Assembly: GCA_012026655.1 (NCBI GenBank)
Contig: JAAILG010000836.1
Location: 1-64,000 of the forward strand
DNA: 64,000 nt
Direction: 5' to 3'
Source of the DNA: Hydrolagus affinis
Taxonomy: Eukaryota
Positions 14,437-60,781 of this stretch are shown piece after piece. The translations under genes and the position numbers were made by a program. Under the pieces are notes generated by a model. The model saw only the letters and a program-made list of their open reading frames with translations, did no database searches and had not been told where the DNA came from. Within the stretch, counting starts at the first letter, position 1, and each line of letters starts with the position of its first letter.

Positions 14437-14610
14437 ATGGCTGTGAATGTTTCTATGGTCCGTGACACAAAATGGCTGACGCTAGAAGTGTGTAGAGAAT
14501 ACCAGAGAGGGACTTGTTCTCGGTCTGATGCGGAATGCAAGTTTGCTCATCCTTCACGAAGTTGCCATGTTGAAAACGGTCGAGTTATTGCCTGCTTTGA
14601 TTCGCTGAAG
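14437..14610 (+). CDS. MBNL3: MBNL3 coding exon 1 (ZnF1 and start of ZnF2)
   Basis: [58 protein letters not shown], the canonical muscleblind N-terminus. Donor AAG|gtaaga at 14611; 174 nt, phase 0. Confidence 0.97.
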
Positions 14611-44802: not shown

Positions 44803-44967
44803 GGACGATGCACTCGAGAAAATTGCAAATATCTCCACCCACCCCCGCATTTGAAAACACAGCTAGAAATCAATGGGCGTAACAACCTAATCCAGCAAAA
44901 GACAGCAGCAGCTATGCTGGCACAGCAGATGCAATTTATGCTGCCAGGCACACAGCTGCAGCCAATG
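44803..44967 (+). CDS. MBNL3: MBNL3 coding exon 2 (end of ZnF2, linker)
   Basis: tttgatag|GGACGATGC...CCAATG|gtaagt; [55 protein letters not shown]; 165 nt. Confidence 0.97.
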
Positions 44968-46441: not shown

Positions 46442-46642
46442 ACCACATTTCCTGTAACTCCATCTTTAGCAACAAACCCCACAATGGCTTTTAGTCCCTA
46501 CTTGAGTCATATGGCACCTGGAATGGGTTTGATTCCTACAGAACTTCTACCAAACACACCTGTTCTGGTGTCAGGGAACCCTACTATTACAGTTCAAGGA
46601 AACACTGCTTCACAGAAGCTAATAAGAACAGATAAGTTGGAG
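46442..46642 (+). CDS. MBNL3: MBNL3 coding exon 3 (Pro-rich linker)
   Basis: tttatccatag|ACCACA...TTGGAG|gtatca; [67 protein letters not shown]; 201 nt. Confidence 0.95.
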
Positions 46643-48158: not shown

Positions 48159-48395
48159 GTTTGCAGGGAATTTCAGCGTGGAAATTGCACTCGGGGTGAA
48201 AATGATTGCCGCTACGCACATCCAGTAGACATTACAATGATAGATTCAAATGAAAACACTGTTACAGTTTGCATGGATTATATCAAGGGTCGCTGTTCAA
48301 GGGAGAAATGCAAATACTTTCACCCTCCTGCACACCTGCAAGCCAAAATAAAAGCAGCTCAACACCAGGTGAACCAGACTGCAGCTGCTGCTATG
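48159..48395 (+). CDS. MBNL3: MBNL3 coding exon 4 (ZnF3 and ZnF4)
   Basis: ttcattag|GTTTGC...GCTATG|gtaagt; [79 protein letters not shown]; 237 nt. Confidence 0.97.
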
Positions 48396-49619: not shown

Positions 49620-49925
49620 CTTTGTTCTGCATGCTTGGTCTTTTTTAATATGTTGTATAATGCATTCAGATTGTTTTTTTTTCTCTTCACCTGTCCACCA
49701 ATGCATTGCTGTCCCTATGACGCACCTCTGCTTGCTGTGTATGTTAATGCGCTTGAACCCCATTGGCCCATTGCCATCATGTGCTCGCTGCCTGCTAATT
49801 AAGACTCAGCCAGCTGTCAGATCACTGAAGCGACCCCTCGAGGCAACCTTTGACCTGGTACTTGGACCTTTCACCTTCTTGCTTTGCATGTAGCTTTCGT
49901 GAAATGTGTTGTAAAAGCATGATTG
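49620..49925 (+). promoter_or_regulatory. MBNL autoregulatory splicing element around the 54-nt exon
   Basis: No AG from 49670 to 49801; distal pyrimidine tract at 49671-49698; about 9 YGCY motifs; AAG acceptor; TGCATG at 49628 and 49885. Near-identical to the recalled human MBNL1 intron 4 3' end. Confidence 0.85.
49804..49857 (+). CDS. MBNL3: 54-nt alternative exon (KRP NLS-bearing, equivalent to MBNL1/2 exon 5)
   Basis: ctaattaag|ACTCAG...GACCTG|gtactt; TQPAVRSLKRPLEATFDL, versus MBNL1 TQSAVKSLKRPLEATFDL as recalled; frame-preserving. Confidence 0.92.
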
Positions 49926-51605
49926 CTTTCCATTTATTGGTACCATTATCAACCCTTAGGACAGTGCCGTTGTATTGTATGTCGATCTGTTTAGAAATGT
50001 GCTACCCAAGTGCGAACCTAGTACCATGCAATCTCCTAAGGGTTCATCATAGCAACAGAGATACATCCACAGTGAAACCTGTTTCTATAGCTTGATGAAC
50101 CCAAAACAACAAATGCATTGCCTGCACTAATAAAAAAAAACTCTATTGGAGGTACTGCCTTTACTTTTTGTCTAGCTTGTGCTTGTTTCCCTTGGAACAT
50201 AACCTAAAACAGAACACAATCTTATCAATCACAAATAAACTCATTAATCTCCAATTTAAAGAGGCAACGTACAGTCCAGAAAATAGTGAATTAACACCGC
50301 ACCTAAAACAGGTTTGACTGTTAATTATGTGATTTTGGCAAAAAGTGGATCCCTGATCGTTTTATTTAATATAATAAATCTAAACTCCTTGTCATTTCCA
50401 AATTACATCTTGGTGAAACTTTAATAACAGCATGAGGTATTAAAAGAGCTTTCTAAAAAAAGAACTATGTTAAGAAAACATACCACTCCCCGAAACGATA
50501 AGAAAACCTGGAAATATCAGCAAACTGCACAAAACATGTGAATTGTAACATGCACCACACAGTATATGATGACTAAAATAACAGTCACCAGTGACTGCAA
50601 CATGAGCTCAGATCACCTTTATAAATCTGAACGCTTCAACTGAAACTTACTTGCAGGAATCCATTATCCTACACTTTACGAGACAACTTTATATCTAGAT
50701 GGGTTGACATCAGCTGCCACATTGCCATAATCACTGTGTTATTTTGCAAAACAGCTACAATTACTTTAGTGTCTGATTACTGCTGCTTAGAACAAGCATT
50801 TTGTTGTTATTGTTGCTATAGACGCTTCTTTATGCTTGTAGTTTTGTGCAGGGTTCCCATTAATGTAAAATTTCAGCCTCTTTTCTTTAACTGCAATGCC
50901 CCCTACACTGAGAGTGGTGTTATGCTTTGAAGGCTGTCAATTGTGCATCATAAGATGAAATAGAAAATCAACTTAAAACTGTATTTATACTTCTTATGTA
51001 TCATTTTGGAACTCACTTAAACTAGACTAAAATGTACTTTTTAATTTCCTAGCTTTTTTTTTGCAGGAAAACAAAAGTTAAAACTGTTTATTTTAAGTCT
51101 GTTTTGAAATGGCTTACATATTTTATGAAATGGGACCTGGCTGTTTAGACTCGCATTATGTCCCAAATGTCAATTTAATAATACTCTAGCGAGAACCCAG
51201 CGAAGTTCTGTGATCTTTATTGATTAATTTGCATATATTTTAGATTTTCATAGTATTTAGTTGCTCAGCTGCAAATGCATTATTTTTCCTTTCATCTCAT
51301 TGCTCTCAATCACCACCCAGCCCAACCTTTTCTCACTTGAAGCTTGGTAAATCACGTCCTGTGTTTTAATGTCAAAGTGAAGATGGTTAAGCATTCACTT
51401 CCACTTGTGATTCTCACAGCTTTATCCTGCCTTTCATGCTTCCCTCACTTGTATTCTCTCACAATGCCTTGCAGCTATAGTCTGCTTCTGCTGCTGTCTT
51501 GCTTAGCTATACAGTTGCAGGAGAATGGCAGGCCAAGTTTTTGGTGTGTTTTTTTGTGCATGCTTAATTTTTTTCTACTTGTCTTAATCAATTGCTCATC
51601 CACAG

Positions 51606-51756
51606 GCCCTCCCGCCTGGTGCACTTCAACCTTTACCAAAGAGGCCAGCACTTGAAAAAACCAATGGTGCCACCACAGTCTTTAACCCCAGTGTTTTCCA
51701 CTACCAACAGGCTCTAGCTAATATGCAGCTGCAGCAACCAACATTCATCCCAACAG
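51606..51756 (+). CDS. MBNL3: MBNL3 coding exon 6 (KRPALEK motif)
   Basis: catccacag|GCCCTC...CCAACAG|gttagt; [50 protein letters not shown]; 151 nt, ends in phase 1. Confidence 0.95.
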
Positions 51757-53225: not shown

Positions 53226-53261
53226 GGTCAGTGTTGTGCATGACTCCCACTGCAAATGTTG
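53226..53261 (+). CDS. MBNL3: 36-nt alternative exon (equivalent to MBNL exon 7)
   Basis: atctgcag|GGTCAGTGTTGTGCATGACTCCCACTGCAAATGTTG|gtaggt; GSVLCMTPTANV, like MBNL GS(I/V)LCMTPATS; phase 1-1. Confidence 0.92.
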
Positions 53262-57649: not shown

Positions 57650-57854
57650 CTCTTCCCCTTTTCTCTTCGTTTTTTTTTCAATGCTGTCTTGCTTTGCACT
57701 ATGATTGCATGCCGCGCCCCGGCGTAACCTACATCGTGATGTGACCTGGCTTGTTGCTGTGATACCTGCCGCACCCAAAACCCACCACATACTGCCATGA
57801 TTTCCATAATGCTCTGCCCTCCTGTTTGTCGCTTCCATGGTTCCTTACTGAAAG
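57650..57854 (+). promoter_or_regulatory. AG-exclusion zone and YGCY cluster upstream of the 95-nt exon
   Basis: No AG from 57650 to 57852; pyrimidine tract at 57651-57679; about 10 YGCY motifs; TGCATG at 57706; AAG acceptor. Confidence 0.75.
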
Positions 57855-57949
57855 TGCCCATGATGCACGGTGCTACACCCACCACTGTGTCTGCAGCAAC
57901 AACACCCGCTACAAGCGTCTCCTTCGCTGCAACAGCTACAGCCAATCAG
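57855..57949 (+). CDS. MBNL3: 95-nt alternative, frame-shifting exon (equivalent to MBNL exon 8)
   Basis: ttactgaaag|TGCCCATG...AATCAG|gtttgg; (V)[31 protein letters not shown]; phase 1-0. Confidence 0.93.
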
Positions 57950-58418: not shown

Positions 58419-58475
58419 ATGCCCATGTTATCTGTAGATGAACTGAGTAGCAGCATGTTTGTTACACAGATGTAG
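58419..58475 (+). CDS. MBNL3: Stop-containing alternative exon (full exon 58419-58492)
   Basis: ttttctattatag|ATGCCC...; MPMLSVDELSSSMFVTQM* (TAG 58473-58475); donor AA|gtaagt at 58493. The alternative frame gives DAHVICR* (TGA 58439-58441). Confidence 0.9.
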   Translation: MPMLSVDELSSSMFVTQM

Positions 58476-60641: not shown

Positions 60642-60781
60642 TTCATGCTGAGATAATGAACAGCAAACTGATGGAGTACCAAGACATCTCCGTGGGGAGC
60701 TGCACACGGCCTTTCTGTAAATACTCCCATCATCCCCTTCCTACCACCTCCGCAGTAAGCCTACCACAGCCTACATGCTAA
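60642..60781 (+). CDS. MBNL3: Dual-frame coding part of terminal exon: frame 0 FMLR* (to 60656); frame +1 (V)HAEIMNSKLMEYQDISVGSCTRPFCKYSHHPLPTTSAVSLPQPTC*
   Basis: Long C/T tract followed by tandem acceptor tgtAG|cAG|TTC. Both frames resemble the two recalled MBNL2 terminal-exon tails (IILK* and DNSEIISRNGMECQE...IELPQTAC*). Confidence 0.78.

Follow-up and report, generated by a model that had tools for sequence, protein, structure and literature searches.

An MBNL3 gene of a cartilaginous fish has exon 5 and a likely autoregulatory intron element in common with its paralogs MBNL1 and MBNL2

The 64,000-nt stretch of Hydrolagus affinis DNA analysed here (the window) contains a muscleblind gene, assigned below to MBNL3, with a 54-nt exon that resembles the autoregulated exon 5 of MBNL1. 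This raises the question of whether MBNL3 once possessed the same splicing element as its paralogs and, if so, how old that element is. The MBNL1 intron 4/exon 5 autoregulatory element was reportedly described by Gates in 2011, and work by Terenzi and Ladd in 2010 and by Kino in 2015 may have a bearing on MBNL3. For MBNL1 exon 5, the accessible portions of the published reports describe a branch point mapped at -141 in mammals (PMC7901844), a weak AAG acceptor and MBNL binding within 90 nt upstream of that acceptor, followed by skipping of the exon and loss of half of the bipartite NLS (PMC7901844; PMC5786016). Mutation of the central TGCGCT motif blunts the MBNL1 dose response (PMC5082313), an MBNL1 exon-5 minigene is repressed by invertebrate homologs (PMC5041496), and in zebrafish exon 5 of both mbnl1 and mbnl2 responds in vivo to Mbnl loss (PMC8246264), again according to the available text. 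Mammalian MBNL3 is described there as being without exon 5 (PMC5786016; PMC5137450; PMC9943662). For positions 49620-49925 of the window, the first-pass annotation had proposed an MBNL3-type gene that retains both the exon and an ultraconserved, MBNL1-like intron element predating the vertebrate paralog split and later lost from mammalian MBNL3, and it had named gene conversion as an alternative.

The anatomy of the element agrees with this description. On the + strand, a 54-nt exon 5 lies at 49804-49857, in frame with exons 4 and 6 and in phase 0 on both sides; its acceptor is AAG and its donor GT. Its translation, TQPAVRSLKRPLEATFDL, includes the KR-containing half of the NLS. Because the nearest upstream AG is found at 49668-49669, the AG-free zone extends over 49670-49801 and thus measures exactly the 132 nt that had been estimated; AG-to-AG gaps of at least 132 nt make up 3 of the 2607 in the gene. 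The distant polypyrimidine tract, a run of T and C at about 49671-49699, is separated from the exon 5 acceptor by more than 100 nt, also as proposed, and a likely distant branch-point region is predicted just in front of it at 49640-49670, with candidate A residues at -144, -140, -136 and -134. The AG-free zone holds nine YGCY motifs, the number expected from the first reading, and is the maximum of YGCY density in the gene, since only one of 4359 100-nt windows (step 10) reaches nine, against a mean of 1.1. Nine motifs were reached in 0 of 2000 mononucleotide shuffles but in 235 of 1000 dinucleotide-preserving shuffles, so that the local dinucleotide composition is enough to yield such a count. 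TGCGCT, the same motif as the central one critical in MBNL1, is intact at 49748-49753. Further upstream, alignment places a TGCATG common to all three paralogs at 49628-49633, which we take to be a putative RBFOX-type motif, and on the other side the exon 5 donor is followed by conserved intron sequence (49858-49895) with a (T)GCATG at 49885-49890.

A comparison of the 306-nt region with the whole genome returned three matches, at 100%, 84% and 81%. The exon, the AAG acceptor and nine YGCY motifs are present in all three paralog copies, as are (T)GCATG motifs on both flanks, and the AG-free zone measures 132 nt in MBNL3, 169 nt in MBNL1 and 140 nt in MBNL2. The paralog comparison was anchored on the exons; in unmasked blastn between the three contigs interspersed repeats swamp the signal. 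Across the three paralog pairs the 130 nt upstream of exon 5 are 85%, 87% and 80% identical, while the corresponding values at six other acceptors range from 46 to 68%, the highest being that of exon 8 between MBNL3 and MBNL2. MBNL3 and the genome's own MBNL1 share 85% of these 130 nt and 94% of the exon, exon 5 nucleotide identity between paralogs being 89-94% overall, and the 40 nt downstream of exon 5 are 78-85% identical between paralogs compared with 40-68% elsewhere. Fourfold sites were also compared, with one codon missing from the end-to-end sequence of MBNL2 exon 4. Between MBNL3 and MBNL1 all 11 of 11 such sites in exon 5 are identical compared with 26 of 84 in the constitutive exons (p=1e-5), where they are near saturation; between MBNL1 and MBNL2 the figures are 10 of 11 and 26 of 82 (p=2e-4), and between MBNL3 and MBNL2 they are 9 of 10 and 51 of 86, a difference that is not significant (p=0.08). 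Conservation of the element, in the intron as well as at synonymous sites, is far above that of other introns and of the background. The word "ultraconserved" does not apply in its strict sense of 100% identity over at least 200 nt between orthologs, as the paralogs share 80-87% in the intron and 89-94% in the exon. Since copies are present in all three paralogs of the genome, the element is likely older than the paralog split, as the first reading had proposed.

We consider it highly probable that this MBNL3 gene contains a 54-nt cassette with an upstream element in common with MBNL1 and MBNL2, which likely descends from a single pre-duplication gene and likely serves as an MBNL autoregulatory splicing silencer. 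The mechanism is modelled on mammalian MBNL1 and on zebrafish mbnl1 and mbnl2. By analogy with MBNL1, the branch point used for exon 5 would lie about 135-145 nt upstream, and splicing would have to reach the weak AAG acceptor across the AG-free zone, where MBNL proteins bound to the YGCY cluster would cause the exon to be skipped. As skipping removes half of the bipartite NLS, the protein would be expected to shift to the cytoplasm and nuclear MBNL activity to fall, closing a negative feedback loop that would be common to all three paralogs; according to published work, exon 5 was later lost from eutherian MBNL3.

The MBNL3 copy could also have been kept for an RNA structure, for RBFOX or other factors or for a DNA-level enhancer, with an exon that is not under MBNL control. 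Such a cause would fit the retention of (T)GCATG on both sides in all three paralogs and the extension of conservation past the YGCY cluster into the synonymous sites of the exon, and exon 5 is reported, in the available part of the study, to be structured in cells (PMC7901844). Folding of the three paralog RNAs, however, gave structures that differ, with compensatory change in 0 of 25 pairs, so that structure is without covariation support. Moreover, the distant-branch architecture is preserved in full, as is the YGCY array with its MBNL1-critical motif. RNA structure, RBFOX and similar inputs could add to MBNL control instead of replacing it. A purely non-MBNL cause appears improbable to us.

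An MBNL silencer inherited from the pre-duplication gene has also to be weighed against the possibility that gene conversion between the paralogs homogenised the element, in which case the high identity would be recent and not ancestral. The synonymous sites of exon 5, almost unchanged while those of the constitutive exons are near saturation, could be read in this way, as could the MBNL1-like exon 5 of holocephalan MBNL2 (17 of 18 residues), which is unlike that of bony-vertebrate MBNL2. Annotated proteins allow the two histories to be compared, the exon-5 peptide being found in 28 of 172 MBNL3, 28 of 59 MBNL2 and 36 of 120 MBNL1 rows. Predicted MBNL3 isoforms with and without exon 5 are annotated in Callorhinchus (P0289 versus P0002/P0291), rays, birds, frogs and holosteans. 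The exon-5 peptide of the window is identical to that of Callorhinchus, a stingray and birds, and it differs from MBNL1 at two residues, positions 3 and 6, which the window gene has in common with Callorhinchus, rays and birds. Of the 36 MBNL1 rows carrying an exon-5 peptide, 33 have the one encoded by MBNL1 of this genome. Because the MBNL3-specific residues are common from Callorhinchus to birds, old selection is favoured over recent conversion, and because the diagnostic sites track the paralog and not the species, conversion since cartilaginous and bony fishes diverged is argued against. This reasoning applies to the codons of positions 3 and 6 since the shark/bony-fish split, and conversion could have taken place earlier. 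Substitutions and indels private to each paralog are present, and the conserved sequence breaks up gradually into short motif blocks without the edge of a conversion tract. In the MBNL2 exon of this genome (C11307:14839-14892) 1 of 18 residues is unlike MBNL1, compared with about 5 in bony vertebrates, which places the likely divergence of the MBNL2 exon in the stem of the bony fishes. Gene conversion, which the first-pass annotation had left as an alternative, is therefore disfavoured in its recent form, and as an explanation of the element we regard it as unlikely to be correct.

Among teleost MBNL3 rows (within P0102-P0120 and P0338-P0351) the exon-5 pattern was seen in 0 of 30, counted by name, and gar and bowfin have a diverged version. 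This suggests a possible independent loss of exon 5 in teleosts, absence from annotations being weak evidence.

The assignment of the gene to MBNL3 rests on its coding exons, which are complete within the window on the + strand. The first coding exon, with start codon and zinc finger 1, is located at 14437-14610 (Pfam CCCH fingers), exon 2 with zinc finger 2 at 44803-44967 (AG/GT boundaries and translation), exon 3, a paralog-diagnostic linker, at 46442-46642 and exon 4, with zinc fingers 3-4 and a phase-0 donor, at 48159-48395 (boundaries and Pfam); two tandem CCCH zinc-finger pairs are present. Exon 5 is followed by exon 6 at 51606-51756, which likely encodes the second KR half of the NLS and has an internal in-frame acceptor at 51711, by the 36-nt exon 7 at 53226-53261, by the 95-nt exon 8 at 57855-57949 and by the C-terminal coding exon with the stop codon at 58419-58475. 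An alternative last coding exon is found at 60644-60778, where 45 residues are 67% identical to the variant C-terminus of an MBNL3 isoform from a caecilian. A second YGCY-dense patch lies at 51410-51520 (7 per 100 nt), about 100-200 nt upstream of exon 6.

A protein search with exon 3, supported by its splice boundaries, gave 135 matches; among the 120 matches listed, most are MBNL3 by name, and the best of those listed is Callorhinchus milii MBNL3 at 98%. Two further MBNL loci exist in the genome, whose exon 3 matches MBNL2 (C11307) and MBNL1 (C795) at 97% each. A tree was built from exons 2, 3, 4 and 6 of 37 rows labelled by their database names, without an outgroup, with exon 6 truncated in the C795 and C11307 rows and with two references, a bat and a Chanos protein, missing from the 36 selected. 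It contains an MBNL1 clade and an MBNL2 clade, both at 100/100, which include C795 and C11307, respectively; in this unrooted tree each of the two loci pairs with its ortholog from Callorhinchus, with support of 100/98 and 99/91. The window gene stands outside both clades, nearest to annotated MBNL3, and is 99% identical to Callorhinchus MBNL3. The MBNL3 rows lie on one side of a branch in just 40% of bootstrap trees and form no starred clade. Judged by its sequence, the window gene is the MBNL3 ortholog of a holocephalan-like cartilaginous fish. That it is MBNL1 or MBNL2 instead, which would make its exon a textbook one, could appeal to the want of a strongly supported MBNL3 clade, but this identity is largely refuted by the existence of separate MBNL1 and MBNL2 loci, each with its own Callorhinchus ortholog, and by the match of exon 3 and the C-terminal exon to annotated MBNL3, and its probability is negligible.

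Downstream of the gene, on the same contig and strand, lies a RAP2-family gene (C836:76583-77131); the contig does not reach the upstream neighbour. MBNL3 is syntenic with RAP2C and HS6ST2, and the downstream neighbour is putatively RAP2C. The downstream gene is not the best RAP2A match of the genome, as another copy fits the PDB RAP2A better, and an exact look-up of the genome's three RAP2 proteins gave no match. The RAP2-family neighbour is consistent with MBNL3-RAP2C linkage but is no proof of it. In all three RAP2 paralogs (C836:76583-77131, C95460 and C44331) the coding sequence is uninterrupted; mammalian RAP2A and RAP2C contain an intron.

Exon 5 may not have been the only regulated exon of the ancestral gene. 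Exon 8 (region 57650-57949) has an AAG acceptor preceded by a 203-nt AG-free zone, the longest in the gene, with up to 6 YGCY per 100 nt. Over the 130 nt before this exon, identity is 68% to MBNL2 but only 54% to MBNL1, and both paralogs have long AG-free zones at this position. Exon 8, which is constitutive in human MBNL3 according to the available text of one report (PMC9943662), is put forward as a candidate second ancestral switch. Use of the internal acceptor of exon 6 removes the first 35 residues, including the KR motif, and is predicted in 24 of 172 MBNL3 rows (cartilaginous fishes and birds), 3 of 59 MBNL2 rows and 6 of 120 MBNL1 rows. In marsupial MBNL3, 12 of 15 rows from nine species by name (P0057, P0058, P0061, P0062, P0065, P0067-P0070, P0072, P0075 and P0079) have a near-invariant, Arg-rich insert of 53 residues at the exon 4/6 junction, and the 18-residue exon 5 is absent from all 15. 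The insert has no match on the contig of the window, and may be either a genuine marsupial exon or an error of annotation. A wider scheme, which we offer tentatively and hold to be possible but not the likelier outcome, would place the ancestral vertebrate MBNL3 on an equal footing with its two paralogs in a feedback network of three genes. Its exon-5 silencer would have been complete and would have stayed fixed, even at synonymous sites, from the genome duplications onward. The gene would also have had a second cassette with a distant branch point (the 95-nt exon with the 203-nt, AG-free and YGCY-rich zone shared with MBNL2) and an exon-6 acceptor whose use removes the remaining half of the NLS. 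In eutherian MBNL3 this layered control would have been taken apart, and the Arg-rich 53-residue exon of marsupials would possibly be a replacement where exon 5 decayed.

Part of this history is already in print. According to the available text of Spruce et al. 2022 (PMC9084524), the 54-bp exon is found in all Mbnl1 and Mbnl2 and in most non-eutherian Mbnl3 genes and was lost in eutherians, while the opossum Mbnl3 copy of exon 5 has an in-frame stop codon. The first-pass claim that the exon was lost from mammalian MBNL3 thus stands as to the loss but is too wide as to the lineage, the loss being eutherian and a copy remaining in the opossum. An element shared by MBNL1 and MBNL2 has likewise been published, as MBNL2 too contains the ultraconserved element in the accessible part of Bubenik et al. 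2021 (PMC7901844), and the two genes are among the pairs with one paralogous conserved non-coding sequence, possibly another element, in a further report of which the available portion was used (PMC3595034). As the central evolutionary point is published, the gain is incremental. No description of an intronic silencer in an MBNL3 gene was found in the full-text literature, subscription papers and supplementary figures lying outside its coverage, and a full-text search with a short motif from the window found no paper printing that sequence. Retention of the full silencer at the nucleotide level, in MBNL3 and across all three paralogs of one genome, may be new, as may the leads on exon 8, exon 6 and the marsupials. 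The three copies form a natural series of the MBNL exon-5 silencer, a splicing event among the best-studied of those mis-spliced in myotonic dystrophy, in which the positions retained in all three indicate the bases that matter. The statement that MBNL3 has no exon-5 loop would hold for placental mammals and not for the ancestral gene.

Among known systems, the closest is the MBNL1 intron 4/exon 5 element, with which the MBNL3 element has in common the 54-nt exon, the AAG acceptor, a far-distal branch region (predicted in MBNL3) and the YGCY cluster between branch point and acceptor with its central TGCGCT. It differs in its location in MBNL3, in two amino acids and in an AG-free zone of 132 nt compared with 169 nt in the genome's own MBNL1; a like regulation by MBNL is presumed. 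The exon is the same as the coding exon 5 of non-eutherian Mbnl3 in Spruce et al. 2022, a study that, in its available text, treats the exon alone and not the intronic silencer or nucleotide conservation (PMC9084524). The exon 5 element of MBNL2 is again the same element retained in a paralog (PMC7901844), and MBNL-dependent skipping is reported for it in the accessible portions of these studies (PMC7901844; in zebrafish, PMC8246264), whereas in MBNL3 skipping of this kind would follow by analogy. The reports on MBNL1 and MBNL2, in the parts available, cover two paralogs (PMC7901844; PMC8246264; PMC3595034), while here the element is found in three paralogs of one genome.
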